Notes: a model not told the origin generated them from the sequence alone. A DNA stretch of 64,000 bases from a virus (IMGVR_UViG_3300010429_002123); one strand, 5' to 3'; shown: positions 1,303-50,059, numbered from the stretch's first letter. Made by a program: numbers and translations.

Positions 1303-1815
1303 ATGTTAAATCAAAACGGAAAGCAGGCTGTGGAGGAAATAATAAGGATTTTAAGAGAGACTGGTGAGGGACTGGAGACCCCTCACCAACAGATACTCAT
1401 TAAGCAGGCCGAAAGACTCGAAACTATGCTCCCGGCCATGATAAGACCTATGCCCCCGCAAAAAGAGTTGCTTGCGAAGCGTTTTCCTGAGGCAGAACAC
1501 AAGACGAGAAAAGGTGCTCGTGGGAAACAGCTCACCTATGTAGAAACTGTAAATTACATAGACAGGTTAAATGAAATATTCGGCCTGCACTGGAGCTGGG
1601 AACTGACTGAGCAGGGTGCTGACGAAGTAGGTGTGTGGAGTCGTGGAAGGCTCACTATCGAGATAGACGGGAAAACGGTAGTTAAAGAGGCATACGGCGG
1701 GAACGACAAAAATGGAGAAATCGGGGACGCCCTGAAAGGTGCTTCTTCTGACGCCCTCAAAAAAGCCTGTTCACTGCTTGGTATGGGTCTTTACATGTAT
1801 AGAGATAAAAAGTAA
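1303..1815 (+). CDS. Rad52/Rad22-family (Sak-like) ssDNA annealing protein
   Basis: R-x-G-x-x-G-x-x-LTYV...IDRLNEIFG..WS and GDALKGASSDALKKACSLLGMGLYMY motifs. Confidence 0.85.
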   Translation: MLNQNGKQAVEEIIRILRETGEGLETPHQQILIKQAERLETMLPAMIRPMPPQKELLAKRFPEAEHKTRKGARGKQLTYVETVNYIDRLNEIFGLHWSWELTEQGADEVGVWSRGRLTIEIDGKTVVKEAYGGNDKNGEIGDALKGASSDALKKACSLLGMGLYMYRDKK

Positions 1816-4258: not shown

Positions 4259-4774
4259 ATGCTGTGCATGAGGGAAAAGAGAAGAAGACTCCTTAAATTG
4301 AGGCAAGAAAAAGCCTCACAAAAAGCGGAAATTTCCGCAAAGTCCGAAGCCCTTGAGACAACCCAGGTAGAGGCACAGAACAGAGAACAGAAGGTAGTAA
4401 GGTGGAGAACTTACTACCGGGATAAAGAAAACTTAGTGGTAAGCAGAAATCAGAAGGGTCATTATTACGTAGTCACAAACACCCTCACAGTAAGGTGTTA
4501 TAAAGTGACAAAAAAAGAAGGCACAAATAAAGGTTCGTGCACCTGTGAAGACTACGTAAAAAACACAGAAAAAGGTAAAGACGTGGTGTGTAAACATATG
4601 CTGGCTGTAAAAAGAGGAGATGAGAAGAGAAAAGCTGAAGAAAACGGGTTACCTTTCCTGGACATTCCCCCGGTAGACTTACTGGGAGACGAGCTTTTTG
4701 AAAAACAGATATTAAAAGAAGGCTTCAAAAGAAGTCAAAGCCTTGTGGATGGGTGGAAAACTCTGAAAAAATAA
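4259..4774 (+). CDS. SWIM zinc-finger protein
   Basis: CTCEDY...CKH motif; own promoter (TTGCCA...TACAAT) and GGAGGT SD. Confidence 0.7.
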   Translation: MLCMREKRRRLLKLRQEKASQKAEISAKSEALETTQVEAQNREQKVVRWRTYYRDKENLVVSRNQKGHYYVVTNTLTVRCYKVTKKEGTNKGSCTCEDYVKNTEKGKDVVCKHMLAVKRGDEKRKAEENGLPFLDIPPVDLLGDELFEKQILKEGFKRSQSLVDGWKTLKK

Positions 4775-4799
4775 TGTTTGCTAATTTTTACAAAACGTA

Positions 4800-4828
4800 T
4801 TGACAAGTAGGGTCAGGTGTGCTACACT
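4800..4828 (+). promoter_or_regulatory. sigma70/sigmaA-type promoter
   Basis: TTTTTACAAAACGTA-TTGACA-17-TACACT. Confidence 0.8.
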
Positions 4829-4998
4829 AAAAGAAAAAGGAGGAAAAACTATGTTAGAACCAGTAGATAGATACCTAAGCACTCTGGAGGAAAGTTCCCC
4901 AGAGAAAGAAGAAAAAAGCCCCTCAGAAATGACTGAGGAAGAGTTTGTAAAATTTTTACTTACGGTTCCATTCTAGTTTTTCCAGATAGGAGGATATT

Positions 4999-7836: not shown

Positions 7837-8199
7837 GTGGTAAGAGTGGACGAAACCGTCACAAAAGATACACAGACAGCTACGATGCAGACACGGGAAG
7901 GGTATAAAAAGGTTACTAAAATGTACACCTCAAAAGGCAAAGTCATCAGAGAAGACAGCCCCTTACAGGAGACTATCTTTGTTCGAGACTTCTTAGGAAC
8001 CTCAGGAAAAGTTTCCATTAACCTGGGAATGACTCTCTCCCTCGGAGAAGGCACCTATGAATTCGTAAGGGTTGACGTTGGGGTTGAACTTCCCTGTTAC
8101 CCGGAAGAACTAAAAGAAGCAAAAACCACCGCATACGAATTCGCAAAAAGTGAGTTATTTGCGAATGCTCAGGAAGTGAGAGAAAAAATACCAAAGTAA
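7837..8199 (+). CDS. hypothetical phage protein
   Basis: 120-aa ORF ending immediately before the array-1 scaffold. Confidence 0.55.
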   Translation: MVRVDETVTKDTQTATMQTREGYKKVTKMYTSKGKVIREDSPLQETIFVRDFLGTSGKVSINLGMTLSLGEGTYEFVRVDVGVELPCYPEELKEAKTTAYEFAKSELFANAQEVREKIPK

Positions 8200-8201
8200 A
8201 G

Positions 8202-8345
8202 ACATCGACGGAAAGTTAAAATACGTGACAAATCCAGTCACTGTCTCGGAGTTAACTTCTTTTTAGAAGTTTCTGAGACAAGGCTTAGAAAGTTTTCAGT
8301 GAGTCAGCCACTTAAAGAAAACGAGTAATTAAGCCAATCTAGCTG
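8202..8345 (+). ncRNA. conserved structured RNA scaffold fused to mini CRISPR array 1 (tracr/omegaRNA-like)
   Basis: Homologous to 9071-9204, 13558-13690 and 46505-46636(-); stems GTGAC/GTCAC, TGTCTCGGA/TCTGAGACA, AACTTC/GAAGTT, GGCTTA/TAAGCC covary between copies. Confidence 0.8.
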
Positions 8346-8510
8346 GTTTCCGAGGAAACATGGTTAGAGGGAAAGACGATAGGGGTGTTTTTGTCAACTT
8401 TTCCGAAGCTCAGTTTCTTAGGGAACATGTTTAGATGGAAAGTACGCCTCATACCTTTCACCTCGACTTCTCTTGAAAGTGTTTCTAAGGAAACATGGTT
8501 AGTTGAAAAG
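8346..8510 (+). CRISPR. mini CRISPR array 1 (3 repeats, spacers 37 and 38 bp)
   Basis: 30-bp repeats at 8346, 8413, 8481 (GTTTCCGAGGAAACATGGTTAGAGGGAAAG and variants). Confidence 0.9.
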
Positions 8511-8548
8511 GGAAAGGGAAAGCGTTCAGATGGAAAGGTGGAAAAGTA

Positions 8549-9088
8549 ATGAAAAGAGAAGAGAACGGAAAAATAAAGAAAAAACACGTGCCTGCTAAAG
8601 TATTCCCTCCAGGAGAGTTCCTTAAGGAAGAACTGGAAGAGAGAAACTGGACAAAGGAAGAACTCTCTCAAAAAACAGGGATACCCCAGCAGGTAATAGA
8701 AGACATATTAAATCACAAAGGTGAAGTGACAGAGGAAATAGCTTCTCTTCTCGCTAGAGCTCTGGACGAACCGGAAGATTACTGGGTATGTTTGAGCAGA
8801 AACTACTTCGAGAGAAAAAAAGTCATTGCCCTCGAAGAGTCAAATCCTTGTAGATGCGGGGGAAGGGTCAGACATACAGGAAAGGTATATTATACCGCCC
8901 CGGCTTATTATGAAATGAAGTGTGATGAGTGCGGGAGAATAAAAGACATAAAAGAGGCTCCCAGTATTCCTGTAATAGAGTGTACAGAGGAAGAACTCTT
9001 CAAAAGACATCCTGAGGTGAGAGAACTTTATGAGAAGTTTCCTCATTTACGAAGAAGTGAGTCCGAAAAGACATCGACGGAAAGTTAA
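8549..9088 (+). CDS. HigA-like XRE HTH protein with C-terminal zinc ribbon
   Basis: FPPGEFLKEELEERNWTKEELSQKTGI...LARAL..PEDYW is the HigA pattern; CRCGG...CDECG; C-terminus TSTES* lies inside scaffold 2. Confidence 0.75.
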   Translation: MKREENGKIKKKHVPAKVFPPGEFLKEELEERNWTKEELSQKTGIPQQVIEDILNHKGEVTEEIASLLARALDEPEDYWVCLSRNYFERKKVIALEESNPCRCGGRVRHTGKVYYTAPAYYEMKCDECGRIKDIKEAPSIPVIECTEEELFKRHPEVRELYEKFPHLRRSESEKTSTES

Positions 9089-9204
9089 AATAAACGACAA
9101 ATCCAGTCGTAGACTCGAAGTTAACTTCTTTTTAGAGGTTTTTGAGTCGAGGGCTTAGAAATCTTTCAGTTTATAGAAAGCAAGTAATCAAGCCCGGCTA
9201 ACGG
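9071..9204 (+). ncRNA. conserved structured RNA scaffold fused to mini CRISPR array 2
   Basis: ACGAC-AAATCCA-GTCGT; GACTCGAA/TTTGAGTC; GGGCTT/AAGCCC; 3' CCGGCTAAC pairs with GTTAGTTGG of repeat 1. Confidence 0.8.
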
Positions 9205-9347
9205 GTTTCTGAAGAAACATAGTTAGTTGGAAAGTTAATTGGAATACCCATTTCAGACAGTTTCGAGAGCACGGTTTCTGAAGAAACATGATTAGTTGGA
9301 AAGAAAAAGAAGGTCAAGGTTCTGAAGAAACATGATTAGTTGGAAAA
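9205..9347 (+). CRISPR. mini CRISPR array 2 (3 repeats, spacers 39 and 14 bp)
   Basis: Repeats at 9205, 9274, 9318 (GTTTCTGAAGAAACATGATTAGTTGGAAAG). Confidence 0.88.
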
Positions 9348-9392
9348 TAAAGAGTTAATAGAGAAATTACATAATAAAAAAGGAGAGAGTGT

Positions 9393-12053
9393 ATGAGCAG
9401 AAAAAAAGTATCCCTGGAGGAAACTCTGGCCGCTATTAACAAGAAGTTTGGAAAAGGAACTATAATGCCTGTGAGTGAAGCAAAAAGCCTGAATTACATC
9501 AGAATTCCCACAGGTATTTTTAGTTTAGACGTTGCTGTAGGGGCTGGTTATGGTCTTCCGAGGGGAAGAGTTTCTCTTATAATAGGAGAAAAGTCCACAG
9601 GGAAAACGACTATATGCATGAAGACGATTGCTACCTGGCAGAAATACTGTAGATTCTGCAATACGGAGATAAAAGACCGTATAATAGAAATAGAACCGAA
9701 GGAAGAAATAAAACCCGAAGTAAAAGAAGAGGTAAAACCTGCAGTAAAGGGAGGAAAAAACACCCCTGAACCGGTAAAAGGGAAAAAACCTCCCGAGCCA
9801 CCAAAAGGAAAGAAACCTCCCGAACCTCCGAAAGAAGAGAAAAAGAAAGTTCAAAAAATTGTCACTAAGTGTGAATGTGGTAAAAACAAACGTATGGTCT
9901 GTGTGTATCTCGACGGAGAGGGAACTTATGACCCTCTATGGGCAAGTCATCATGGCGTAGACAATACCTCAGTAATAATGTTACAGCCTGAGTTTGCGGA
10001 ACAGTGTGCTGACGTTGTAGAAGAGCTGATACGCACTGGGGATGTTGACTTAATCATCGTTGACAGTATCGCAGCCCTCGTACCTGCCTCTGAAATAGAA
10101 GCTAGTGCAGAAGACCAGCAAATGGGAACCCACGCGAAAATGGTGAATAGAATGTGCCTGGAAGGAAACCAAAGGGTAATAAACGAGCTTACTGGAGAAC
10201 TTATCCGAGTTAAAGACTTAAAGGCTGGAGTTACGCTTACTTCCGTGGGAGAAGACAATAAAATAAGAAAGAACGTGGTTACAGAAGTGTTTAAAACAGG
10301 TAGAAAAGACTGCCTGAGGATAAACAACACACTGGTTCTCACAAAAGACCACTTAGTTTTTACAGACTCTGGCTGGGTAGAGGCTGGTAAACTCACCCGT
10401 AATCATCTTATCGCAAGACCAAAAAACCTTCCAGTTTTTACCACAGGAACCTCGGACTTTTTTAATGTGGAAGCCCGTCTCCTCGGTTATGCCCTCTCTG
10501 CCGAAGGTAACCCGGAAGCCTGGAAACGCGGGGGTAAGCACGAAGTAGAAGATAAAAGAAGAGCCATAGAGTTCTTTGGAGAAAGACTTCCTCTTCTGAC
10601 CTTTGAAGACTACAGTCAAATACTTTCTTTAGACCTGGGAAAAGCTCCGCATTTGAGAAGGTATAGAGACTTGTTTATAAAACATAACCTGAGTAAAGAG
10701 ACTCTCGGGATTATTCCTAAGGCCATCTTTGGGGGAGATATAACCCAGATAAAAAACTTTATAGAAGCCATGTGGACAGGAGGAGGTCTGGTCAACCCCA
10801 CAGAAAAAACGTTGACTTACTTAACCGTTTCTGAGACCCTGGCTTATCAGTTAAGACATCTCTTATTAAGGTTTGGAGTATGGGCGTCACTCGGTGTAAG
10901 CGAGTTCTCCTCAAGGTCTTACCCCTATGGGAAAAGATACCTTCTTACCGTAGCGGGTAAACAAAATGTGAAGAGATTTTATGAAGCCTTCTCTCTCTTA
11001 GACGAGAAGCAAGACAGGTTAAAAAGAATAGTAGAAAGATGGAAAAATCAATCTGAATTACCTATTCCCGCACAGGAGCAATGCACTAAAAAAGAGGTGG
11101 AAACCTTAATAGCTCTCTTAAAGAAGAAGAAAATATCTGGAACAGATGTTTGTTGCTTCATAGGTCTTTGCCGGAATGCTTACCCGGAGCACAAGGTCTA
11201 CACCTATGAGATATTAAAAAACCTCGTAGTTAAGTTTGGTCTTCAGGAGTTAATTCCTATGCTTGAATCTGACCTCTGGTACGAGCCTATTATAAATATA
11301 GAAGAATATGGGACTGAAGAGGTCTATGACATTTCCATGAAAAATGAAGAAAACTTCCTGTGCGAAGAGTATGTGGTGCATAACTGCAGGGCTCTCAGTT
11401 CCTCTATGAACAGTCTTGGGATAGAGTGCGAGACAAAACCCCATGTAATTCTGATTAACCAGAAGAGAGACAAGCTGGGCTTTTTTGGAGGTACTACCAT
11501 ACCAGGTGGAAAAGGCCAGTGGTACACAGCAGGCATAATAGTAGACATGAGAACCCCCCATAAAATCGGAGAAAACGGAAAGTTAGACCCAAAACAAGAC
11601 AGCAGTGACTATTACAAGACCGTAGAAACAGTAGGCTCCCTTCATAACTTTGAGGTTGTGAAAAACAAGACTTATATCCCTTTTAAACGTGGGTCTTTCC
11701 GCATCTACGGCCAGACTTGTAATAATGAAAGCCTTTCTGTCAGAAAGGGAGAAATAAACACGGAAGAACAAATATTACGTGTAGGTTTAAATACTGGAGC
11801 TATTTTGCTGAGAGGAACCTCCTATGTATTTCAAGACGTTATCTTTGGGATAGGAAAAGAGAAGGCTCTACAGGCGTTAAAAAGTAACCCGGAGTTACAG
11901 GAGAAAATAAAGGTTGTTATTCTGGAAAATATAAAAAGTGAGCTGGCTTCAAGCAGGGATTTATTTGAGGCTAACCAGGACATGCCCGACGGAATAGACT
12001 CCCTGTCTTTTGAACTTATGTCTGAAGAGCCCACAGAAGACAGTGGAGAGTGA
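9393..12053 (+). CDS. recA: RecA recombinase with intein and Zn/Pro-rich insertion
   Basis: INKKFGKGTI, IPTGIFSLDVAVG, GEKSTGKTT (Walker A), LIIVDSIAAL, INQKRDK, TIPGGKG. Confidence 0.93.
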   Translation: MSRKKVSLEETLAAINKKFGKGTIMPVSEAKSLNYIRIPTGIFSLDVAVGAGYGLPRGRVSLIIGEKSTGKTTICMKTIATWQKYCRFCNTEIKDRIIEIEPKEEIKPEVKEEVKPAVKGGKNTPEPVKGKKPPEPPKGKKPPEPPKEEKKKVQKIVTKCECGKNKRMVCVYLDGEGTYDPLWASHHGVDNTSVIMLQPEFAEQCADVVEELIRTGDVDLIIVDSIAALVPASEIEASAEDQQMGTHAKMVNRMCLEGNQRVINELTGELIRVKDLKAGVTLTSVGEDNKIRKNVVTEVFKTGRKDCLRINNTLVLTKDHLVFTDSGWVEAGKLTRNHLIARPKNLPVFTTGTSDFFNVEARLLGYALSAEGNPEAWKRGGKHEVEDKRRAIEFFGERLPLLTFEDYSQILSLDLGKAPHLRRYRDLFIKHNLSKETLGIIPKAIFGGDITQIKNFIEAMWTGGGLVNPTEKTLTYLTVSETLAYQLRHLLLRFGVWASLGVSEFSSRSYPYGKRYLLTVAGKQNVKRFYEAFSLLDEKQDRLKRIVERWKNQSELPIPAQEQCTKKEVETLIALLKKKKISGTDVCCFIGLCRNAYPEHKVYTYEILKNLVVKFGLQELIPMLESDLWYEPIINIEEYGTEEVYDISMKNEENFLCEEYVVHNCRALSSSMNSLGIECETKPHVILINQKRDKLGFFGGTTIPGGKGQWYTAGIIVDMRTPHKIGENGKLDPKQDSSDYYKTVETVGSLHNFEVVKNKTYIPFKRGSFRIYGQTCNNESLSVRKGEINTEEQILRVGLNTGAILLRGTSYVFQDVIFGIGKEKALQALKSNPELQEKIKVVILENIKSELASSRDLFEANQDMPDGIDSLSFELMSEEPTEDSGE
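10155..11384 (+). mobile_element. intein in RecA (410 aa, degenerate LAGLIDADG-type endonuclease)
   Basis: CLEGNQRV...LTKDHLV...YVVHN followed by Cys; exteins rejoin as VNRM/CRAL. Confidence 0.9.
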
Positions 12054-12066
12054 AGGGGGTAACTAA

Positions 12067-12543
12067 ATGGAAATAGTAAACTTTAAACGTGTGAGAATAA
12101 AAGAAGAGGGAAGAGACAAGCCTAAATACATAGGTTTTATTTGTGACTCTTACTTTATCTCATCACGAATAGTGGAAAAACATATGTACCGAGGTGGAGT
12201 AGGAACCATAGAAGAATGCAGAGAAGAAGGTTTGGCAAGCTGGGGATTAGACAGAAAAGTAGCCGAAGGTCTTGAGGTCAATGGTGTGAAAGAAATTCTT
12301 TTAGTCACAGACAAAGGCTACTTTAAAATAGGTGTAGACACTTTTCTTGACGAAAGTTTTTCAAAAACCTTTCATAACTTTCGAGAGCAGTTCTTCGCCC
12401 GAGAAAAGTTTTTCTCAAAAGCAGAGGGGGACGAGACTTCTGAACAGTTTGTAGCTCTGTTTAGACCCGAAAGAAAAGACTTGGAACTTCTCCTTGACCG
12501 TATAAAAGAGCTATCCTTCAGAGGACAGGAGGACTTGTCTTGA
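12067..12543 (+). CDS. hypothetical phage protein
   Basis: 158-aa ORF with SD, coupled to the next gene. Confidence 0.6.
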   Translation: MEIVNFKRVRIKEEGRDKPKYIGFICDSYFISSRIVEKHMYRGGVGTIEECREEGLASWGLDRKVAEGLEVNGVKEILLVTDKGYFKIGVDTFLDESFSKTFHNFREQFFAREKFFSKAEGDETSEQFVALFRPERKDLELLLDRIKELSFRGQEDLS

Positions 12544-13070
12544 AAACAGAAGGACAAAAATTGAGTAAAAAGCAGGAGAAGCAAACAGAAAAAGCTCTAA
12601 AAAAACACGGTTTTGTTAACCCTACCAGAACTCCCGGAAGTGGGAACAAATCTTTAAAGGGAGACGTCATTACAGACACACTGATGATAGAGTGTAAAAT
12701 CACGTCTAAAGAGCAGATAGGAATAAAGAGGGATTACATAACGAAACTCATAGAGGAGAGTATAGAAGCAGAAAAAGAGCCTGTTTTTGAGTTCGGCTTT
12801 TCCGGTATTAGTAATTTTGTGGACTTTACATGGATGGCTGTCCCAAAAAGCCGTATGGAAGAGCTTTTTAAAGAAGAAAAGACTACCCCCTTTGTAGTAA
12901 AGGGCAGAGGAACTAAACAGGTATCTATAAAGTATGAGGTGTTAAAAACCCTCCTTACGCAAGCACAGGAGCCATTGTTAGAGTTCACTTTTTCCGGTCT
13001 AGAACCCTGGTGGGCAGTTCCGAGAGAGCAACTATTAAAACTCTTATTCTCAGAAAGGGGGGAGCGGTAA
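12540..13070 (+). CDS. PD-(D/E)XK nuclease, Holliday junction resolvase-like
   Basis: E...TPGSG...KGDV...IECK motif. Confidence 0.7.
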   Translation: MKTEGQKLSKKQEKQTEKALKKHGFVNPTRTPGSGNKSLKGDVITDTLMIECKITSKEQIGIKRDYITKLIEESIEAEKEPVFEFGFSGISNFVDFTWMAVPKSRMEELFKEEKTTPFVVKGRGTKQVSIKYEVLKTLLTQAQEPLLEFTFSGLEPWWAVPREQLLKLLFSERGER

Positions 13071-13203: not shown

Positions 13204-13575
13204 ATGGGGCTTATCGTTAGAGAAGACCTGGTTCAGGACTTAAAAAACACAGAACAGTTATTGGACAAGACCCTTTCTTTAGCCCGAACGCTTATACATA
13301 AGTATGAACAACCGGGTATGGGGCTGGGGGAAGAACTCCCTTACGAGTTCTGGAACTTGCTCAAAGAAGTAGACTGGACAACGACGTGGTTTCTTGAACA
13401 CGCCTTTGACAAAGAGGAAACCCCTCTTTACACAGACGGCTTACTTCTTTTTGAATCCTGTTGTCTGGGACTGGAAAAACATATGAGAGATACGAAAAAA
13501 CTCTGTGGGATATTTAAGATGATGGCCACACTCTTTCGAGATAAGACCTTAACTATAACATCGACAGAAAGTTAA
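13204..13575 (+). CDS. hypothetical protein
   Basis: 123-aa ORF; C-terminal TSTES* supplied by scaffold 3. Confidence 0.55.
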   Translation: MGLIVREDLVQDLKNTEQLLDKTLSLARTLIHKYEQPGMGLGEELPYEFWNLLKEVDWTTTWFLEHAFDKEETPLYTDGLLLFESCCLGLEKHMRDTKKLCGIFKMMATLFRDKTLTITSTES

Positions 13576-13690
13576 AATAAGCGACAAATCCAGTCGCAGT
13601 CCTGAAGTTAAGTCTTTTTTAAGACTTTTTGGGACAGGGCTTAGAAAACTTTCAGTTTATAGAAAGTGAGTAATCAAGCCAAACTAACGG
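13558..13690 (+). ncRNA. conserved structured RNA scaffold fused to mini CRISPR array 3
   Basis: GCGAC-AAATCCA-GTCGC; GTCCTGAA/TTTGGGAC; AAGTCT/AGACTT (compensatory versus AACTTC/GAAGTT); ACTTTC/GAAAGT. Confidence 0.8.
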
Positions 13691-13955
13691 GTTTCTAAAG
13701 GAACATGGTTAGATGGAAAGTATGTGGAGACCGTGCACTACATCGACCGGCTTAACGTTTCTAAAGAAACATGGTTAGATGGAAAGCATGGGCAACTTAC
13801 ATTAGTAGCTTCATTGGCAACAAGGTTTCTAAAGAAACATGGTTAGATGGAAAGGTTACTATGTTTCTAAGGAAACATGGTTAGTTGGAAAGATTCGAAA
13901 TAGTCTATATCTACTTTTTTATTGTGTTTTTGAATAAACATGGTTAGTTGGAAAG
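13691..13955 (+). CRISPR. mini CRISPR array 3 (5 repeats, spacers 36, 38, 8, 33 bp)
   Basis: Repeats at 13691, 13757, 13825, 13863, 13926; terminal repeat degenerate. Confidence 0.93.
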
Positions 13956-13988
13956 TGGTTATATAAAAAGATTAAAGGAGGAAAATTT

Positions 13989-14264
13989 ATGAAAAAGATT
14001 ATGTGTGAAACTTGTAAATTACAGATGGTACCAGACCGGTCTGTATGCTACACGAGTAACCCACCACAGTATGACTATAAGTGCTTTAAGTGTGGGCAGG
14101 TAAAGTTGGTGGCTGACGACCTCCCGTTAGAGGGGGAAGCCCTCTTTAGAAAGATAAACAACTTAGATGAAGGTATCACGCAGTTAAACGAGAGAAAAAG
14201 CGTGTGGCTGTCCGAAACAATGGACGGTATGGGAACTGAAAACTCAATCTTTTTGGAGGATTAA
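13989..14264 (+). CDS. small zinc-ribbon protein
   Basis: CETC...YTSNPPQYDYKCFKC, similar to the Zn ribbon of 8549..9088. Confidence 0.55.
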   Translation: MKKIMCETCKLQMVPDRSVCYTSNPPQYDYKCFKCGQVKLVADDLPLEGEALFRKINNLDEGITQLNERKSVWLSETMDGMGTENSIFLED

Positions 14265-14266
14265 CA

Positions 14267-14917
14267 ATGCAACTGATGAATAAACTATGCAAGACATGTG
14301 GGGAAAGAATCATAGGGGTTCGCCCGCAAAACAGTAACCGCATAGATAAGAAGACAGGGAAGTTTACTGACGGAGATTATCCCATGTGGGTATGTCCTAC
14401 CCTGATGGCTCAATGTGCCTGCACGGCAAAAGGAAAGAACCCCGTTGTAGCAGATTCTTATCAGGCACTCTGCAATATAAGAGTAGCTTACGAATTTTCT
14501 GCCCGTAACAAGTCTGTTTGTATGGGCTGTTATTACCCCGAAGATGACTGGGAAATAGTCGAATACGGGAACACTCTCGAAGAACTCGCGGACAAAGTAG
14601 CGAAAAAACTGGTAGAAACAGAGATAGAGATAGAAAATCCAGAACTGTCTAAAGTGAGACTTCTGACTTATGAAGACCAGGAGTTCAAACTGGGTTGGGA
14701 ATCTTTCGCGGAAGTAGAAACGGAACCCTTCATTCAGAGCGTAAAAGAATCAGAAACTTACAAAAACCTTATAGAAGCAAAGAGAGTAGAGGCAGAAAAA
14801 GAAAAAAAGGAAAAAGAAGAGCAGGCAAAAAAAGCTCTGGAAGAACGAGAAAGAGCCGAGTATGCGAGGTTAAAAGCAACATACGAGCTCATAGAAAGAG
14901 AAAATCAGGAAGAATAA
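14267..14917 (+). CDS. hypothetical Cys-rich protein
   Basis: 216-aa ORF with GGAGG SD. Confidence 0.55.
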   Translation: MQLMNKLCKTCGERIIGVRPQNSNRIDKKTGKFTDGDYPMWVCPTLMAQCACTAKGKNPVVADSYQALCNIRVAYEFSARNKSVCMGCYYPEDDWEIVEYGNTLEELADKVAKKLVETEIEIENPELSKVRLLTYEDQEFKLGWESFAEVETEPFIQSVKESETYKNLIEAKRVEAEKEKKEKEEQAKKALEERERAEYARLKATYELIERENQEE

Positions 14918-14929
14918 AGGAGTAAACTA

Positions 14930-15535
14930 ATGATTGCGGAAACATGCGAGATAATTGTCTTAGAGGGTATAGATGGCTCCGGGAAAACTACACAGGCCAA
15001 ACGGGTAAAAAAAGAGCTGGAAACAAAAGGTTACAGAGTGCACATGATAGCATTCCCCAACGAGGGGACTGATTACGGGTTTAAGCTGAGGTCATGGTTA
15101 CAGGGGGCAAGAAAATTAAGTCCACAAGCCCTGCAGTTACTCTTTGAATTGGATAAATACGTTTCTTTAAGCAATTTTGCTCAGGAGAGCCTTTATTATG
15201 ATATTTTACTGCTTGACCGCTACTGGCTCTCCGGGGTTGTTTACGGAGTAGCAAGGGGGCTTGACCTCGAATGGTGCAGAGCTCTGGTACAATACCTACC
15301 GAAAGAGAGCATGGGTTTTTTATTTGCACTGTCATTGGAGAAAAGCACAAAAAGAGCCCAGTTTGACCGAACAAGTAAAAAGGAGTTACAGGAAAAAGTT
15401 CATGAGTTTTACGCTTCTCTTACTCCCCCGTCCTACATAAGAATAAGTGCAGAGACTGCTGAGATAGAGGAAACAAGTTCTCTAATTGTCGAAAAGATAA
15501 CAGAAAGGTTTCCTTTACAGAGAAGAGCCTTTTGA
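14930..15535 (+). CDS. tmk: thymidylate kinase
   Basis: IVLEGIDGSGKTTQ P-loop, LLDRYWLSGVVYG. Confidence 0.9.
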   Translation: MIAETCEIIVLEGIDGSGKTTQAKRVKKELETKGYRVHMIAFPNEGTDYGFKLRSWLQGARKLSPQALQLLFELDKYVSLSNFAQESLYYDILLLDRYWLSGVVYGVARGLDLEWCRALVQYLPKESMGFLFALSLEKSTKRAQFDRTSKKELQEKVHEFYASLTPPSYIRISAETAEIEETSSLIVEKITERFPLQRRAF

Positions 15536-16633: not shown

Positions 16634-16863
16634 GACCAAGATTGTCTCACTATACCGTAAGAAAGAAGGGTGAAAAAACTATGTCTATTACAGAGATAGC
16701 CATAAAGAACCGAAATGAGGCGAAAAACTTTCTCGATAACCTCCACATTAAACACAGAGAGACTCTTGTAAAAGAGGGGGCTCTCCGGGAGAACGAGAAG
16801 TTCTGGGGGTGTGATGAGTGTGGCTGTTATCTAAGAGAATTTCGCCCCGAAGAAAAAACAGAC

Positions 16864-16917
16864 CAGTATACTCAGGATACTCAGGATACTCAGGATACTC
16901 AGTATACTCAGTATACT
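16864..16917 (+). repeat. 9-bp tandem repeat (CAG[T/G]ATACT x6) in frame in ORF 16642..16992
   Basis: Encodes QYT/QDT repeats. Confidence 0.9.
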
Positions 16918-17444
16918 GCGGAAAAACACTATATAATTATACCAGAAAACGGAACCAGATTTTTTCACGAGAAAATCGCCTGCTTTATCTGACAGGAAAG
17001 AAGGGTAAGAAATGCCAGCAGACACTCAAAGTTCGGCTACATTAAGTCTGGGTGAGGGGACAGTGAGTTTTAACGGGCGTAGCATAGGCTACATTCAGGG
17101 TGAACTCACTGTGTCTTACCCCCCGTCCCCAAAAAACCGGGTGAGACTAGACTTTACCTGCCACGTGTGTGGGAAGTCTGTAAGGTGTAAGGGAGGACGG
17201 TACGCCCACGAAGGCGAAATAGTTACAACATATTGCCCAAACTGCAAGCGAACAACTCGGGGGAGACTCACCATAGTTTATTTTATGTCCGGGTCACCTC
17301 TGGGTAAGTTAAAAAGCAGTTATTATCTTGCGAAGCTCTCACCTATCGAGGAGAACCTTTCTCAGAAAAGTTCTTGCACGATAGAAGAGATAGAAAGAAC
17401 ATGATTTTTTCTTTATAAATTAGGGTTCTACATCAGGAAAAGAG

Positions 17445-18998: not shown

Positions 18999-20663
18999 GT
19001 GCAGATATTACAGACAAGACAGGTCATAGCATTTGATACAGAATACGTAGACCGTGACTTTCCTAACGTTGATGTAGTAGGAATGTCTCTTGCATGGAAA
19101 GAGAACGGCCACGTAGACGGTTGTTACATACCTGTTGGGCACACAACGGGGGAGTCACAGTTACCTATAGAACTCGTTGCCGGGGCTATGAAACCCATAC
19201 TAGAAGACCCCGAAAAATTGATAGTCATGCACAACATGAAAGCTGACATAAAAGCGTCCTGGCTTATGGGTATTTACATAGCGGACGCTCCTTACTGGAA
19301 CGCCCTTCTGAACGAGGGGATTACTATTCCTTACAAAAAAGCCATAAGAGAAACCCACTTATGGGACACCATGCTTGCCTCCTGGATACTCGAACCGGAA
19401 AGAGAAATTTCTCATAAGTTAAAAAAGCTTGTAAAAGAACTTCTCGGGTATGAGATGCAGGAGCTGACAGACTTTGCTCCCAGAGAAAAAGCCTTGTTTA
19501 CAAAAACAGGAAAACCAGTTAAGTTAAAAGCTAACGAAGTTGCCCCTGATGAAACGAAGGTTCAGATATTAAAAAAGAGCAAAAAAGCTCTTCTGAGAGT
19601 AGATAAAGTCCCCATAGCCTCCCTCGGCAGGTACGCCTGGGACGACGCCGTGTGGACTTATAAACTGTATGAATACTTCAAAAACATCATAGAAACCTCA
19701 AATGCGGGGAAGGATAACAAGATTTTCTATGAAGTTCAACTCCCCTTTGCTGTAGTGCTTACGGAAATGGAAATCATAGGCTCTCCCATAGACGTCGCTT
19801 TACTGAAAGACATGGAAACAAGAGCAAAAGCAGAACTGGTAACGATAGAGAATAGGATTTACGAGTTGGCAGGAAAAACCTTTAACATAAAGAGCACAAA
19901 ACAGTTAAATGAGGTGCTTTTTGACACTCTCGGCTTAAAGCCTGAGGGTGACATGAACAAAAAAGGGGAATACTGCACAGACAAAGACGTAATGAGAAAA
20001 TATAAGAGAGAGTATGATGCCTTTAAGGCAGGTCTGCAGAAAAAGGGGGCTGAATGTGAAATAGCCTACTGGATGCTAAAACAGAGAGAGCTTACTAAAC
20101 TCATCGGGACATATCTGGAAGGTCTCGTCCTGTTTGCCAAAAACGGCAGAATTCATACCAGTTTCAACCAGCTTTCAAAAGATGAGAGAACCGGAACAAA
20201 AACCGGGAGGTTGAGTTGCGTGGCTAAAGATACGTTACTCTATGTAAAGACCGGAAGAGGCCGGGGAAAACTTCAGGAAGTTGAAATATCCAAACTTGAC
20301 TTGACCATACCCACGAGAATTATGACATGTGAGGGAAGATATAAACCCATAAACAAACTGATTTTCAAGGGTGAGGACGACCTCTACGAAATAACCACAA
20401 CTGCCGGGTGGAGACTGGTATGCACAAAAGAGCATCAAATCCTAACCCCTCACGGATGGTGGGTATCTGTTGGAGGCTTATTCGTAGGGCAAGAGGTCTA
20501 CGGAAACAAGCATAGGTGCACTCCTACAAACTGCACAGGTTACAAAAGAAGCTTCATAACCGCTATACGTCCCTTTGGAAGAGGGGAAGTATGGGACATA
20601 GAGGTAGCAGAAGACCAGTCTTACTACGCCGGAGGCTTTTTAAACCATAACAGTTCGAATCCT
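18999..20663 (+). CDS. polA: family A DNA polymerase, exon 1 (3'-5' exonuclease, thumb, intein 1)
   Basis: AFDTEY, MHNMKAD, DTMLASW, YAWDDA, FNIKSTKQL, TKTGRLS|intein|SSNP. Confidence 0.92.
20217..20651 (+). mobile_element. mini-intein 1 in DNA polymerase (145 aa)
   Basis: CVAKDT...CTKEHQI...FLNHN followed by Ser. Confidence 0.9.
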
Positions 20664-21382
20664 CAAATGGGGCTACTTTCCGGTGACGGAAAGTTAGAAT
20701 CTCTGTTAACTCGGTGGAATCTAAGTTTCTCTCCAGAGGAATATGACAATACCGAGCCGAGCTTCGCAGGAATGCGAAGAAGGTGTAACGACTACCTTGA
20801 TGTAATCTAGAACAGATAGAAAAGGCACGAACACAGAGTATCTTAGGTTGATTACCAAGATTGACAAAATATTTCTCCCGTCTATAATAAGAGCGAGGTG
20901 AAGAAAAATGAGAAATGATTGGACTAAGTCTGAAATAGCGTGGTTCAGAGAAAACTACCCAAAACACGGGTTGCATTACTGTTCTGATATTTTAAAAAGA
21001 ACCACAAGTGCCATTCTAATGAAGGCACATTTATTAGGTTTAAAAAGACGAGGAAAAGGAAGAAAAGACAGGGTGTATACATACGACGGTTACATTACTG
21101 TTTCCTCTGAGGGTGATAGATACCAAGTGCACAGAAGAGTAATGGAAAACCATATAGGAAGGAAACTGTCAACAAAAGAGTTAGTTCATCACAAAGACGG
21201 AAACAGAAAAAACAATTCCATTGAAAACCTAGAAATTTTGTCAAGAAGTGAACACATGAAAATTCACTACCCGCAGAGAATGAGAAATTCAAAAGGTCAG
21301 TTCGCCTAAGATAAAGATATAGTCTGAACTTGCGGGAAACCGCAAGAATTTCAGGATAAAGAGCCTGAAAGGTAACAAAATG
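20664..21382 (+). mobile_element. group I intron 1 in polA
   Basis: Exon ends in U (CCT), intron ends in G; removal restores SSNP|NLQNI; R-like GTAACGACTA and S-like AAGATATAGTC elements. Confidence 0.9.
20908..21309 (+). CDS. intron-encoded HNH homing endonuclease
   Basis: VHRRVME...VHHKDGNRKNNSIENL...EH..IH; internal promoter TTGACA..TATAAT at 20861-20888. Confidence 0.9.
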   Translation: MRNDWTKSEIAWFRENYPKHGLHYCSDILKRTTSAILMKAHLLGLKRRGKGRKDRVYTYDGYITVSSEGDRYQVHRRVMENHIGRKLSTKELVHHKDGNRKNNSIENLEILSRSEHMKIHYPQRMRNSKGQFA

Positions 21383-21664
21383 AATTTGCAGAACATCTCA
21401 CATAAGTCAGACTATAAGGTAAGGAAAGCCTTTAGTTCTTCCGGGGAAGAGGGCTGGAAATGGCTGAGACTGGATTACTCACAACTGGAGTTAAGAGTGG
21501 GAACTCACTTCAGCAAAGACCCGGAGATGATGAAAGTCTACATGAACGATGGAGACATTCACAGCACCACGGCAAAAGGAAGTTTTAATCTAGACTGTGA
21601 GGCCAGCGAAGTCAAGGCAAAATATCCCGGTTTTCGGGACAAAGCAAAAGTCGTCAACTTCGGT
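21383..21664 (+). CDS. polA: family A DNA polymerase, exon 2 (motifs A and B)
   Basis: NLQNI, DYSQLELR (motif A), RDKAKVVNFG (motif B). Confidence 0.92.
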
Positions 21665-22443
21665 ATGGTAAAAAATGCCGAAGCGGGGGAAGATGTAATC
21701 CCCATTAAACCTGCTCAAAACGGGGGAATCCGAAACATAGGCCAAAATCAGCTAAGTTGTGGGCTATCCCGTGCTACTCTTAAGGACAAGCGTAGTGTAT
21801 CGACTTTGCTTACTCGGTGTAGGGTAAGCATAAATAAACCGTCTGTTCTCTACTAATTAGAGAATAAATCAATCGAGTTTATTTACACGGCAGGCAAAAT
21901 GTGCTAAAGTTAATATAAAGGAGTGGTATGGATGACTGACGGACAGAAACTTTGTAAAAAATGTAAACTACCTTTTATACTAACAGGAAATAATCAACAA
22001 TATTGTCTTTTTTGCAAAGAGGACAGAGCAAGGGAGAGAGGGAGACTTCGTTACAAAAATACCCGCGTAACCCCCGTAAAAAAGGAAAGATTGGTTGGGA
22101 AAAATCACCCGGGGTTTAAAACGGGCGTAGGTCGTAGTTACTATTGTAAACTCGCCTTCTCAACATATGGGAAAATTTGCTGTCTCTGTGGGGGGTTACA
22201 GAACTTATGTGTTCACCACAAAGACGAAAACAGGTTTAATAATGAGGTTGAGAACTTAGAGGTTATCTGCAGAAGATGTCATGCTAAAAAGCACAATCTT
22301 CATAAGTCTTTACCAAAAGGGAATCGGTTGTCAGAGTGCAAAAAAGAGCAAGTAAAAACTTTTAAGAGGGACGAAAACGGAAAATTTATTAAAAAGCACA
22401 TTTAAAGGTATAGTCACACTGTATAGAAATTTACAGAAAAAGG
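21665..22443 (+). mobile_element. group I intron 2 in polA
   Basis: P1 CTTCGGT/GCCGAAG with U.G at the splice site; terminal G; removal restores NFG|IFYGMG; GTATCGACT and GGTATAGTC elements. Confidence 0.9.
21923..22405 (+). CDS. intron-encoded HNH endonuclease with zinc fingers
   Basis: CCLCGG..LCVHHKDENRFNNEVENLEVICRRCH..KH. Confidence 0.88.
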   Translation: MVWMTDGQKLCKKCKLPFILTGNNQQYCLFCKEDRARERGRLRYKNTRVTPVKKERLVGKNHPGFKTGVGRSYYCKLAFSTYGKICCLCGGLQNLCVHHKDENRFNNEVENLEVICRRCHAKKHNLHKSLPKGNRLSECKKEQVKTFKRDENGKFIKKHI

Positions 22444-24930
22444 ATTTTTTACGGAATGGGACCAAGTTCTCTTGCAGAAACCATAAACAAAGAACTTGAC
22501 GACCCAAGAGACTTTTTAACGGAGGAAGAAGCTAAAAAAGCTATTTCAAACTTTATGGCTACTTACAAAGGCGTTTCACGTTATATTGAAAAATATAAAG
22601 ACATAGCCAGAGAAGTCGGGGTTGTAAAAACCCTGACAGGAAGAGCTCGCCCCTTACCCGCAGCGATGGTTAAGGCTCCCTGGAAAATAGCCGACCCGAA
22701 GGAGAGAAAAAAAGCTATTGAGGAAAAAGGACACGCCGAAAGGGCTGCGGTAAACTGCTTCGACGAAGAAACAGAGGTGCTTTCCCAAAGAGGCTGGCTT
22801 TCTTACAAGAACTTAACTGCCTCAGATGTGTTAGCCACAATAACGGGGGAAGGTGTTTTAGAATGGGACACTCTAATAGCTGTCAGTATGTTCCCGGGCT
22901 ATGATGAACCATGCATAGAGTTCTCTCACCCGGAAATAAGTGCCCTTACAACCAAAAATCACAGGTGGCTTGTATATGACAGAGTAGAAGCCAAAAACTT
23001 TTTTGTAACTACTGAAAATCTTTGTGCCCGGCACGAGATATTAAAAACTGCTACAAACCCACAGAAAGAAGCAGGTATTTCAGACATGGAACTTCTGAAA
23101 CACCCCCTTTCTCTGGAGTTTCTACTAAATCTGTCCCAAAGACAGTGCAGACTTCTTTTAGAAACCCTGATAGGAACAGGGTCTACTTCAATAAGCCCTG
23201 ACCTCTACCAGATACTGTGCTTTTTATCTGGGAAGAGCTATGAACTCTCCTTTAGAAACCTGTCTTCATACGCTGGATACACTCCCGGAAAGGACAGAGT
23301 TTATCTCCTCCCTGAGCACAAAAAAGAGAAAACAGTCTCTTTTGTCTGGTGCCCTACTGTAAAAAACGGGACGGTTGTGGTCAGAAGAAAGGGCACGGTT
23401 TATATCACCGGTCAAAGCCCCATTCAGGGGTGTCTCCCATCTTCCGCTCGAATTCTAACCCTTGAGGGATACAAGACTATAGACAACTTGATAAAGAGTT
23501 ATCCCGGAGAGAGACTGCAGGTATGGACGGGTTTTAACTGGAAACCAGCAAAAGTTCTCCCTATGGGTAAGGCTCCACTCATGAAAGTGACTTTTAAAAA
23601 CGGCTATAGTGTAAAGTGTGACAACCGTCACAACTTTAAAGTCCTTTCCGACAAACTGGAGTGGAAAAATATCTTGTCTCTTAAAGAGGGGGATATGGTC
23701 GCCACTCCTTACGGAGAGCAACACTTCGGGCAATACAACGCGAGAAACCTGGACATCTACAGGGGTAGAAATATTTGTGAACGGAGGTTTGACTATAATC
23801 TTCTCTTTTACCTCTCAGGTTTTCTGCTTTCGAGGGGAGAAATCATAGATGAGGGTGAGAAAACTCACATAAAGATTAGATTTACAACTTCTCTTCTTTC
23901 TAGTCGGGTCATAACCCTTGAAGAAAAAGTAAGAAACGTGCTTGTTAAATCTCTCTTAGAGAATGGAATCCTCTTTACCTGTGAGAGCAGGCGAAGAGAC
24001 GTGGGGACATCCCCCCATTCAGTTGTTGACCTTATAATAACTGACCAGCAGTTGCTTAAAGTTTTCTTAAGAGAGTTTGACGTCAGGAGTGGAAAAGTCC
24101 CTGAGCACATTTATAAGAGTGTCCACCCCTTACGCAGGCTGTTCTTAAAAGGTCTCGTGGAGGGAGGAGGACAACTCGACGGGAATAAAGTAATTCTTAC
24201 TTTTTCTGAACGTAATCTGGCTGAAGAGATAGCCTTTCTCTTAACCTCCGGGGGTTTTGTCTTCGAGGTAAAGAACTCTCCTAAGCTATCTCTATACCAG
24301 ATAACAATACAGCACAAACACGCCTTCCTGGCCTGGATTGGAATTTTCTCCGGCTCTTTCTACAACAGGACGAAGAAAAAATGTCCCGATGTATACATAA
24401 AAGAGTTTTTTGAAAAATTCACCCGAAACGCCAGAGGAAGGGTTACTCCCGGAATAACCCGCCAGTCCTACAGATACAAAGAACTGTTAGAGAAAAGACC
24501 AGAAAAATGCCATTTACATTTCCTGTACAAAATGGCAAGAGATTTCGGAATTGTCTTTGACGAAAAGTATGACTACCTTATAGTAGATAAAATTGAGTAT
24601 CTCGGTGAGGAACAGGAGATGTACACCCTTTCTGTTGACGACGACTTACATCAATTCGTAGCAGACGGGGTAATAGCCAAGAATAGTGCCGCCGACATAG
24701 TCTCAATAGCTATGAGAAACATTCGCCTGAAGCTCATGGAGACCGGAGACTGGTGGAAAAATTGCCAGCTCTTAATCCAGGTGCACGATGAGCTCAATTT
24801 TTTGATAAAGGAAACAGAGATAGAAAGGTTAGTTCCTCTCATAAAAAGTGAGATGGAAAGTGCGGTTAAGCTAAGAATACCCCTGGTGGTGGATTACCTT
24901 GTTGGGGTGAACTGGTTTGAGTGCAAGTAG
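22444..24930 (+). CDS. polA: family A DNA polymerase, exon 3 (inteins 2 and 3, motif C)
   Basis: IFYGMG, TLTGRAR, ERAAVN|intein|SPIQG|intein|SAADI, QVHDEL. Confidence 0.92.
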   Translation: MFYGMGPSSLAETINKELDDPRDFLTEEEAKKAISNFMATYKGVSRYIEKYKDIAREVGVVKTLTGRARPLPAAMVKAPWKIADPKERKKAIEEKGHAERAAVNCFDEETEVLSQRGWLSYKNLTASDVLATITGEGVLEWDTLIAVSMFPGYDEPCIEFSHPEISALTTKNHRWLVYDRVEAKNFFVTTENLCARHEILKTATNPQKEAGISDMELLKHPLSLEFLLNLSQRQCRLLLETLIGTGSTSISPDLYQILCFLSGKSYELSFRNLSSYAGYTPGKDRVYLLPEHKKEKTVSFVWCPTVKNGTVVVRRKGTVYITGQSPIQGCLPSSARILTLEGYKTIDNLIKSYPGERLQVWTGFNWKPAKVLPMGKAPLMKVTFKNGYSVKCDNRHNFKVLSDKLEWKNILSLKEGDMVATPYGEQHFGQYNARNLDIYRGRNICERRFDYNLLFYLSGFLLSRGEIIDEGEKTHIKIRFTTSLLSSRVITLEEKVRNVLVKSLLENGILFTCESRRRDVGTSPHSVVDLIITDQQLLKVFLREFDVRSGKVPEHIYKSVHPLRRLFLKGLVEGGGQLDGNKVILTFSERNLAEEIAFLLTSGGFVFEVKNSPKLSLYQITIQHKHAFLAWIGIFSGSFYNRTKKKCPDVYIKEFFEKFTRNARGRVTPGITRQSYRYKELLEKRPEKCHLHFLYKMARDFGIVFDEKYDYLIVDKIEYLGEEQEMYTLSVDDDLHQFVADGVIAKNSAADIVSIAMRNIRLKLMETGDWWKNCQLLIQVHDELNFLIKETEIERLVPLIKSEMESAVKLRIPLVVDYLVGVNWFECK
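22756..23415 (+). mobile_element. intein 2 in DNA polymerase (220 aa, ends Gly-Gln)
   Basis: CFDEETEVL...TTKNHRW...VWCPTV..GT...YITGQ followed by Ser. Confidence 0.85.
23431..24684 (+). mobile_element. intein 3 in DNA polymerase (418 aa, LAGLIDADG-like)
   Basis: CLPSSARIL...CDNRHNF...LKGLVEGGG...GVIAKN followed by Ser. Confidence 0.88.
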
Positions 24931-25503: not shown

Positions 25504-25785
25504 TGAAAGAGGTAGTCAAACTCCAGTCCGTTTCTTTTGTAGCAAAAGGAAGAGTAATTTGTGTGGGTGACGCTCCCGGAGCTTATAAAATTCAAATACT
25601 ACCTCCCCCACTGAATATACTCAGAGCACTGGGCAACATGTTTTTCAGTGCGGGGGGAATAAACATGTGGCCTTACATGCCAATACCCTTTCTCTTTTGT
25701 GAACTTCTGGGTTTTCCTAGAGAGCATCTGAAGTTACTGCACGCCGGTCTCGCCAGAGAAAAAGCCTGTGTCCTTACGGGAGACA

Positions 25786-25862
25786 CTGAAAAGGATTTTC
25801 GTTATCACGAAAAGGAGTCTCGTTGCCACGAAAAGGATTTTCGTGATAACGAAAAGGAGGAG
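25786..25862 (+). promoter_or_regulatory. tandem 21-nt GGA-loop hairpin repeat ending in the SD
   Basis: CACGAAAA-GGA-TTTTCGTG-type units; last unit is AAAAGGAGG before the ATG at 25867. Confidence 0.75.
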
Positions 25863-31059: not shown

Positions 31060-31111
31060 AAAAAGAAGGGAAAAAGAAGGGAAAAAGAAGGGAAAAAGAA
31101 GGGAAAAAGAA
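31060..31111 (+). repeat. 11-bp tandem repeat (AAAAAGAAGGG x4-5)
   Basis: Read directly from the sequence. Confidence 0.85.
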
Positions 31112-31136
31112 AGTTAAATAATTTTTACAAAAAGTA

Positions 31137-31165
31137 TTGACAACTATCTTCACCCGTGCTATAAT
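31137..31165 (+). promoter_or_regulatory. sigma70/sigmaA-type promoter with shared UP motif
   Basis: TTTTTACAAAAAGTA-TTGACA-17-TATAAT. Confidence 0.88.
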
Positions 31166-31258
31166 AATTTTAGTGAAAGAACCAAACAGACGAAAATGCT
31201 ACCACGAAAAAGATTTTCGTTACCACGAACTGTTATCGCAAAAAGGAGGAAAAATAAC

Positions 31259-49378: not shown

Positions 49379-49453
49379 TAACCCACAATAAAGAGATTAC
49401 CGTGCTTTTCGCTTTATCTTCAAAACCGAGCAAGTGCCTGCATCCAAAGAAAA

Positions 49454-50030: not shown

Positions 50031-50059
50031 TTGACATTTACAAAACACTGTAGTATACT
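50031..50059 (+). promoter_or_regulatory. promoter with shared UP motif
   Basis: TTTTTACAAAAAGTA-TTGACA-17-TATACT. Confidence 0.85.

Follow-up and report, generated by a model that had tools for sequence, protein, structure and literature searches.

The leader-proximal spacer of a small CRISPR array in a phage-like genome, here called spacer 3a, encodes a 12-residue stretch of a Rad52-family single-strand annealing protein, and its derivation from a foreign Rad52 homologue is well supported by sequence comparison. The array is one of four dispersed mini-arrays in the window, by which is meant the whole 64,000-nucleotide stretch of DNA that was analysed. On balance, we lean towards the view that the cas-less mini-arrays of this genome use host Cas proteins against competitors and that spacer 3a was captured from the Rad52 gene of another phage lineage.

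Spacer 3a and the Rad52 gene of the carrier

Spacer 3a occupies positions 13721-13756 on the + strand, is 36 nt long and lies between two 30-nt repeats (13691-13720 and 13757-13786). Its translation in frame 1 is YVETVHYIDRLN, its GC content is 53%, and 10 of its 12 third codon positions are G or C. The homologous site in the carrier's own gene, at 1537-1572, lies in frame within ORF 1303-1815 (+ strand, 170 aa) and translates to YVETVNYIDRLN. Spacer and site are identical, in frame, at 25/36 nucleotides and 11/12 amino acids, and the two stretches quoted in the preliminary description are exact, as is its count of a single non-synonymous codon, which changes His to Asn. The 11 mismatches fall at spacer positions 6, 9, 12, 15, 16, 18, 24, 28, 31, 33 and 36, comprising eight third and three first codon positions, and two of the latter leave the amino acid unchanged (CGG/AGG and CTT/TTA); the longest exact run is 5 nt.

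The match between spacer 3a and the carrier's own gene is well beyond chance. When 300 shuffled spacers were compared with the window after masking of the arrays, the top match was 24/36 and most lay at 20-22, against 25/36 for the real spacer. At the peptide level the match scores 58 BLOSUM62 units, compared with 200 shuffles that average 30 (sd 3.3) and reach at most 39. The seven remaining full-length spacers are without a comparable match in the window, and neither the other spacers nor the spacer of a fifth cassette described below gave a protein or nucleotide match above the shuffle range (maximum 39 for shuffles of 3a) in the window and the fetched loci, where the best of the remaining spacers was 3d at 37-40, to be read against that same maximum of 39.

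The matched gene belongs to the Rad52 family, as the preliminary description had proposed. ORF 1303-1815 matches the Pfam domain Rad52_Rad22 (PF04098) with an E-value of 4e-13 and 49.9 bits, above the curated cut-off of 20.3, and also matches PHROG 1097, an Erf-like annealing protein. A profile built from 14 relatives (the carrier protein and 13 others) recovers structures of the human RAD52 N-terminal DNA-binding domain (5xrz, 1h2i and 1kn0) at an E-value of 5e-6. The block that is most conserved in the Rad52 alignment is the region spanned by spacer 3a, and the resemblance of the carrier's own gene to the spacer is probably due only to this coverage of the family's most conserved motif.

CRISPR mini-arrays and neighbouring genes

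The four mini-arrays contain 14 repeats in total (3, 3, 5 and 3 in arrays 1 to 4), and shuffled windows gave no repeat matches. They have a common 30-nt repeat, GTTTCTAAAGAAACATGGTTAGATGGAAAG, which ends in GGAAAG at its 3' end, and hold eight spacers of 33-39 nt together with two truncated spacers of 14 and 8 nt. The units have the make-up of CRISPR arrays, with at least three near-identical direct repeats in the 23-50 nt range, unique spacers of similar length, a leader, and degenerate terminal repeats, the leader-distal repeats carrying 3-5 mismatches to the reference repeat.

Array 1 (8346-8510, + strand, spacers of 37 and 38 nt) forms unit 1 (8200-8510) together with its leader at 8200-8345 and is followed by a gene encoding an HTH plus zinc-ribbon protein (8549-9088). 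Array 2 (9205-9347, + strand, one spacer of 39 nt and the truncated spacer of 14 nt) forms unit 2 (9069-9347) with its leader at 9069-9204 and is followed by an intein-containing recA gene (9393-12053). Array 3, the third on the + strand (13691-13955), has spacers of 36, 38, 8 (truncated) and 33 nt; its repeats R2 and R3 are exact copies of the reference repeat, R1 is 1 nt off, and the last two are degenerate. Array 4 lies on the - strand (46504-46343, spacers of 37 and 35 nt) in unit 4 (46343-46676), where a promoter (46676-46648) and a leader (46641-46505) precede the array and a gene for a 650-aa HTH protein (46278-44326) follows it. The side on which the leaders lie, the degenerate distal repeats and the promoter of array 4 set the orientation as leader then array, with GGAAAG at the 3' end of the repeat, and it is this orientation that makes 3a the leader-proximal spacer of array 3.

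The repeat sequence differs between arrays, including in the last 8 nt, and this variation together with the two truncated spacers suggests partial decay. The single-base difference between R1 and R2 of array 3 is unexpected straight after an acquisition in place.

Two of the cassettes are followed by genes of regulator type. HTH_3 regulators lie directly 3' of arrays 1 and 4 (8549-9088, and 44326-46278 on the - strand), the former in fusion with a zinc ribbon, and a small zinc-ribbon protein encoded after array 3 (13989-14264) weakly resembles the C-terminus of the protein encoded after array 1 (29% identity over 59 aa). It may be that each cassette was copied along with the gene that follows it, or that the cassettes form part of the 5' untranslated regions of regulatory genes. 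A search of 5.8 billion proteins returned no homologue for the ORF that lies before array 3.

Contigs that carry the arrays are present in four further assemblies (ENA ERZ795055, Logan SRR5007150, Logan SRR6960540 and JGI 3300019210). Every one of these contigs is 100% identical to the window, and no spacer turnover is seen among them. One additional contig carries a fifth cassette, consisting of a repeat identical to R1 of array 3, a 35-nt spacer not present in the window, a repeat like R1 of array 2, and 255 nt of unknown sequence. This contig has a depth of 55, compared with 58 for the phage and 58.5 for the path through spacer 3a, and these near-equal depths indicate that the fifth cassette and the 3a path are separate loci rather than alleles. 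The repeat-spacer junction of the fifth cassette recurs in an RNA library of another study, and the combined observations suggest a fifth array beyond the window. Two metatranscriptomic libraries contain contigs that span arrays 1 and 2 as well as the R1-3a-R2-3b-R3 stretch of array 3, which hints at expression of the arrays, with DNA carry-over in RNA libraries being possible; coverage gaps and depth differences in these RNA-library contigs were left out as evidence.

A conserved structured leader

A conserved element of about 135 nt precedes all four arrays, with a pairwise divergence of 17-23% between copies. The copy in front of array 3 (13556-13690, + strand) contains three conserved hairpins, and its start overlaps the end of ORF 13204-13575. 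RNAalifold analysis of the four leader copies gives 46 pairs, of which 11 have compensatory double changes; none of 500 column shuffles reaches 11 compensated pairs, and slid controls give 0-1. Each of the four leaders folds more stably than its shuffled versions (z from -2.9 to -4.3). Several leader pairs are G-U when taken on the array sense strand, and in two variants of the repeat its 5' hairpin is likewise preserved by G-U pairing, which favours a leader that acts as RNA and is transcribed in the orientation of the array. The maintenance of pairing in spite of 17-23% divergence, with 11 compensated pairs, points to selection on the leaders after duplication. Pairing is predicted between the 3' bases of the leader, CTAAC, and GTTAG within the first repeat (helix 8), and this helix is invariant in all copies. 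Neither the leader nor the repeat matches any Rfam family, even at E-values up to 10, and the leader motif was not found in IMG/VR.

Array 4 is preceded by a sigma-70-type promoter, TTGACA-17-TAACAT with an extended -10, which scores 10/12 and ends about 7 nt before its leader, and cassettes 1-3 are placed within gene runs on the + strand.

In the preliminary description, spacer 3a was called the scaffold-proximal spacer of array 3. The position is correct in that this spacer is the one nearest the conserved upstream element, and the term scaffold is better replaced by structured leader RNA, as distinct from a tracrRNA-like partner of the repeat. A tracrRNA-type scaffold was considered and rejected: in all four units the leader-repeat duplexes, at -9 to -17 kcal/mol, are not better than those formed with shuffled repeats (means of -12 to -15).

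Origin of spacer 3a

The exact 12-residue peptide occurs in four Rad52 clusters at 90% identity (P0007, P0016, P0017 and P0019), in whose proteins it is the most conserved motif. Nucleotide identity to spacer 3a rises from 25/36 in the carrier's own gene to 26/36 in the P0007 contigs (L001-L004), 28/36 in L010/L030 and L028, and 30/36 in L022-L026, which comprise three lineages, and in the genes with the exact peptide every nucleotide difference from the spacer is synonymous. These genes reside in small temperate-type phages or prophages from sludge and digester samples, next to an integrase or large serine recombinase, Prim-Pol and DUF669, a gene neighbourhood that is unlike the surroundings of the carrier's Rad52 gene. 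L022 has a tyrosine integrase, and in L028 and L033 a large serine recombinase borders directly on genes of the chromosome that encode an M17 aminopeptidase and an FHIPEP (FlhA-type) export protein, on a 91-kb contig recorded as a Vulcanimicrobiota MAG.

The different neighbours and the temperate-phage context place the source in a homologue from a different phage group rather than in an orthologue from a sister phage. The preliminary description had traced the spacer to the orthologous gene of a related phage; the foreign Rad52 homologue is borne out by the exact peptide and by identities of up to 30/36, and the relatedness is not, since the bearers are small temperate elements with different gene neighbours. 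A sister-phage orthologue also finds no support in the sole syntenic relative of the carrier that was found, which has no arrays.

An exact protospacer of 3a was absent from IMG/VR, JGI metagenome contigs, GTDB genomes, INPHARED and PLSDB, and from the DNA of the six sampled Rad52 lineages that encode the exact peptide. A codon-degenerate form of 3a gave three inexact matches, two among JGI metagenome contigs and the third in GTDB genomes, all of them in Rad52 genes at 26-28/36, and IMG/VR yielded no match to 3a, to its codon-degenerate form, or to 28-nt cores of spacers 3b, 4a and 1b. With blastn, all matches of array 3 and of spacer 3a in INPHARED and PLSDB had E-values of at least 0.1; the best of these, gp96 of Arthrobacter phage SilentRX, is not a Rad52 gene and was rejected as a target. 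As no exact protospacer was found, no PAM or TAM is derivable, and a PAM read from the flanks of the homologous sites (GCA, GCC and GCT, with ACC in the own gene) was dropped, none of these sites being the true protospacer.

The sampled Rad52 homologues all lie on contigs of 35-39% GC, in contrast to the predominance of G or C at the third codon positions of 3a (10/12). The true source of the spacer may therefore be an unsampled genome of higher GC content, which need not share the host.

The carrier and the target type share their habitat: contigs of both were assembled from anaerobic digesters and activated sludge, and two of the assemblies belong to one ENA series (ERZ795055 and ERZ795025). 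The public runs that contain stretches of the window are labelled as anaerobic digester and activated sludge metagenomes, together with two metatranscriptomic libraries. An 8.1-Mb MAG (G001) that is the source of a 28/36 match contains four different Rad52-family genes on four contigs (L030, L031, L034 and L035, on C3, C147, C43 and C115), which suggests several prophages or a composite bin.

The carrier genome and the search for cas genes

The window is the part of a phage-like genome of about 234 kb in which genes for replication and nucleotide metabolism lie, the longest recorded contig with the Rad52 protein being 233,966 bp. It encodes an intein-containing recA, an Hjc-type resolvase, a split or intein-containing PolA, an intein-containing SNF2 helicase, ThyX, UDG, methyltransferases, thymidylate and nucleoside kinases (dNK), a dUTPase and many ORFans. 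We infer from gene content that the carrier is a phage: PolA, recA, Rad52, Hjc, ThyX, dNK, dUTPase, inteins, a group I intron and PHROG matches are present, and the only relatives are distant phages. Capsid, terminase and other structural genes were not found within the 64-kb window.

Searches with Pfam, PADLOC, PHROGs and NCBIfam identified no cas effector or adaptation genes among the larger and array-adjacent ORFs of the window, and none were found in the flanks, which extend 8.7 kb upstream and 10 kb downstream on other contigs of the same phage (including L006 and L019). The window also encodes a Cas4-like PD-(D/E)xK nuclease (54689-55606, + strand) that has Fe-S-type cysteines and a zinc-ribbon insertion and that matches phrog_1706, annotated as CRISPR/Cas system associated, at an E-value of 9e-24, TIGR00372 at 17.5 bits against a cut-off of 65, and PDB 4ic1 at 1.5e-4. 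Cas4-like Fe-S nucleases often partner phage annealing proteins, and in view of this pairing the protein is probably a recombination exonuclease partner of Rad52 and is not counted as a CRISPR component.

A host array with the 30-nt repeat was not found in IMG/VR, PLSDB, INPHARED, G001 or 401 genomes of the phylum of G001, where the repeat pattern gave one match with 2 mismatches and a backwards control pattern gave a similar number. Close relatives of the carrier were likewise not found by a search for Hjc in IMG/VR or by megablast of 25 kb of the window against INPHARED. The sole syntenic relative found is distant and has 31% GC (L036, positions 8185-12813 of an 86.9-kb contig of JGI 3300033519), with an Hjc that is 53% identical and the gene order recA, two small ORFs, Hjc, two small ORFs, thymidylate kinase, two small ORFs and dUTPase. 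Its gene junctions are tight, with no repeat, leader or CRISPR cassette at the corresponding positions, and its recA is without an intein. The absence of the cassettes from this syntenic locus indicates that they were gained by the carrier lineage.

Proposed mechanism and self-targeting

In the proposed mechanism, transcription of each cassette would yield an RNA whose repeats end in GGAAAG, with cassette 4 read from its own phage-type promoter, and host Cas proteins would process the transcripts and load the resulting crRNAs. The effector is taken to be of class 1 with Cas6 processing because of the 30-nt repeat, its 8-nt tail ending in GGAAAG, and the lack of an anti-repeat partner. Spacer 3a would have been captured from a Rad52-family gene of another phage lineage, most like the small temperate phages and prophages of sludge and digesters, and once the large phage has infected a cell, the crRNA of 3a would guide the host effector to a co-infecting competitor or resident prophage, which would be destroyed. 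The outcome would be heterotypic superinfection exclusion, an effect already reported of virus-borne mini-arrays. The 3a crRNA has the same sense as the rad52 mRNA, so that DNA rather than the transcript would be its target, which argues against transcript-dependent targeting here. Transcription and processing, the use of host Cas proteins, the class of the effector, interference and immunity of the own gene are in this scheme steps that we infer.

Inter-phage competition and self-protection by divergence, both put forward in the preliminary description, are reasonable readings by analogy with the viral mini-arrays already described. Cascade-like class 1 effectors do not read every sixth spacer position. 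Spacer 3a starts on a codon boundary, with the result that half of its wobble positions coincide with the positions that a class 1 effector leaves unread. If the effector is of this class, the effective mismatches to 3a number one in L025, two in L026, three in L022 and six in the carrier's own gene, and the sampled temperate phages could still be hit by the 3a crRNA. Under the same assumption, 5 of the 11 mismatches in the own gene lie at unread every-sixth positions and the seed (positions 1-5 and 7-8) is intact, which makes self-protection less clear-cut than the preliminary description had stated. Immunity of the carrier to 3a is plausible, is not guaranteed by the sequence alone, and may also depend on the PAM.

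Alternative explanations

Several other explanations of the cassettes have to be weighed against targeting by host Cas proteins. The cassettes could act as RNA decoys of anti-CRISPR type that soak up host Cas6/Cas7-type proteins in the style of Racr RNAs or non-targeting crRNAs and thereby shield the phage, with the content of the spacers being incidental. Such a role, which is compatible with targeting and which we regard as rather unlikely, is suggested by the presence of at least five copies of a promoter/leader/repeat cassette, by the truncated spacers of 14 and 8 nt that leave near-solitary repeats, and by the HTH_3 genes right after arrays 1 and 4, an arrangement resembling acr-aca operons. 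In a published type I-F system, a non-targeting crRNA lowered interference as Racr did (PMC10651486). However, eight spacers have normal lengths of 33-39 nt and 3a is of clear foreign phage-gene origin, Racr candidates are by definition solitary repeat units whereas these cassettes are arrays, and no acr gene was recognised. Alternatively, the arrays could be served by a complete or partial CRISPR-Cas system elsewhere in the phage genome, in which case the meaning of the spacers would be unchanged and the machinery would be the phage's own. The 64 kb of the window and about 19 kb of flanks represent the examined part of 233,966 bp, the fifth array lies outside the window, the repeat occurs in none of the viral, plasmid and genome collections searched, and huge phages frequently bear CRISPR systems (PMC11656645). 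Nevertheless, there is no cas gene beside any of the four arrays, the Cas4-like nuclease falls far under the NCBIfam cut-off, and the arrays are dispersed among replication genes instead of being grouped at a cas operon, and a phage-encoded machinery appears to us a little less credible than a decoy.

It is improbable that the cassettes are passive relics, that is, fragments of host arrays that included a spacer against a temperate phage and that were recombined into the phage, duplicated and left functionless. Leaderless phage mini-arrays have been suggested to arise via recombination with host arrays (PMC6858448), and the degenerate terminal repeats, the two truncated spacers, the variable last 8 nt of the repeat and the lack of spacer turnover among samples are in keeping with this origin. 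A relic is not readily reconciled with leaders that have diverged by 17-23% and have kept their pairing through 11 compensated pairs, with a strong phage-type promoter at the start of one leader, or with array sequences in RNA-library contigs. Least credible, to a degree that makes it highly improbable, is a regulatory role in which a host effector, led there by the imperfectly matching crRNA, would occupy the carrier's own rad52 without cutting it. Viruses have been described to encode crRNA-like regulators (bioRxiv 10.1101/2024.10.29.618823), the PAM-proximal positions 1-5 and 7-8 of a class 1 spacer match the own gene, and 5/11 mismatches fall at every-sixth positions; yet the mismatch pattern is fully accounted for by degenerate codons in a conserved motif, the genes of other phages match 3a better than the own gene does, and the site is in mid-gene rather than at a promoter, with a longest exact run of 5 nt.

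Relation to known systems

The reading of the cassettes as guides for host Cas proteins against other phages has a precedent in the virus-borne mini-arrays of the portogloboviruses SPV1 and SPV2, which have leaders, no cas genes, spacers against other viruses and a mutated homologous locus in the carrier (Medvedeva et al. 2019, PMC6858448). Mini-arrays of phages and prophages in interviral conflict have also been reviewed (PMC11656645). Like the SPV1/SPV2 mini-arrays, the cassettes described here are short arrays with a promoter-bearing leader and no nearby cas genes in a genome that is viral to judge by its gene content, and contain a spacer that probably comes from the gene of another virus, with point differences at the carrier's own homologous site. 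In contrast to SPV1/SPV2, they occur in a bacterial phage-like genome of about 234 kb in at least five cassettes, no exact target was found, and the genes that match best are those of an unrelated group of temperate phages and not of a sister strain. The leader is conserved as a structured RNA here, which is not reported for the SPV arrays. Taken together, the cassettes fit an instance of the already known virus-borne mini-CRISPR arrays in interviral conflict.

As in the CRISPR systems of huge phages, some of which are without adaptation or interference genes (review PMC11656645), the arrays are found in a genome larger than 200 kb; unlike those systems, they are tiny and dispersed, each has its own leader, and there is no cas effector in the examined part. 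With Racr (PMC10651486) and viral crRNA-like regulators they share the organisation of cas-less, repeat-bearing small RNA cassettes in multiple copies downstream of promoters, here beside HTH genes. They differ in holding full-length spacers, one of clear foreign origin, and the units are arrays with such spacers, as opposed to the solitary repeat unit, without a functional spacer and mimicking the host repeat, that defines Racr.

The leader of the cassettes resembles the leader-repeat hairpin of type VI systems (PMC13187072) in being structured and presumably transcribed, with predicted pairing to the first repeat, and differs from it in that the well-supported hairpins lie further upstream and the system type is another. 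The structured leader is the one feature without a described counterpart among virus-borne mini-arrays. It is conceivable, albeit speculative and on present evidence doubtful, that the cassettes constitute a crRNA delivery module evolved by the phage, in which a structured leader is present in at least five copies ahead of regulator and recombination genes and which would attack resident prophages or temperate competitors at their recombination gene while possibly swamping host immunity. The leader RNA of such a module could stabilise the transcript or improve loading into host class 1 Cas proteins. Conserved in all four cassettes of the window, the leader is a testable candidate for a viral adaptation that helps to hijack Cas proteins.

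If the proposed function is true, the cassettes would represent a clean bacterial case of a very large phage armed with host-dependent CRISPR guides against phages, and would extend a mechanism shown in archaeal viruses to the phage communities of wastewater and digesters. Since the carrier has its own diverged copy of the conserved recombination motif on which spacer 3a lies, this copy and the target are open to codon-by-codon comparison. The ecological claim hinges on the identity of the host and its Cas type.

Other features of the window

Several further repeated elements are found in the window. Tandem 21-nt units (consensus about CCACAAAAAGGATTTTTGTTA) that form small hairpins occur in 2-7 copies directly upstream of many ribosome-binding sites (25782-25860, 31200-31250, 38777-38927, 39594-39680, 41689-41753, 50909-50973 and 55624-55709) and have the appearance of an operator or translational control element used throughout the phage. 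A conserved phage promoter with a T-rich upstream element, TTGACA, a spacing of 17 nt and a TATAAT-like element with TG is present in about 10 copies (1209-1280, 4771-4842, 31108-31179, 41623-41698, 42616-42687, 50002-50073, 50836-50870 and others), which indicates a bacterial host that uses sigma-70. Selfish elements are dense, with inteins in recA, PolA (as two ORFs), the SNF2 helicase and ribonucleotide reductase, and with a group I intron that scores 90 bits in Rfam; they are located at 9393-12053, 18999-24930, 27388-30915 and 36266-36541 of the window and at 13451-15397 of the flanking contig L019. A perfect palindrome of 33 nt (core TAGACTGCA...TGCAGTCTA) is present six times at 49452-49822, in a non-coding, divergently oriented region, and the copies may form an operator or origin cluster. 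Between ORFs at 16855-16933, a 9-nt repeat, CAGGATACT / CAGTATACT, is found in about eight tandem copies.
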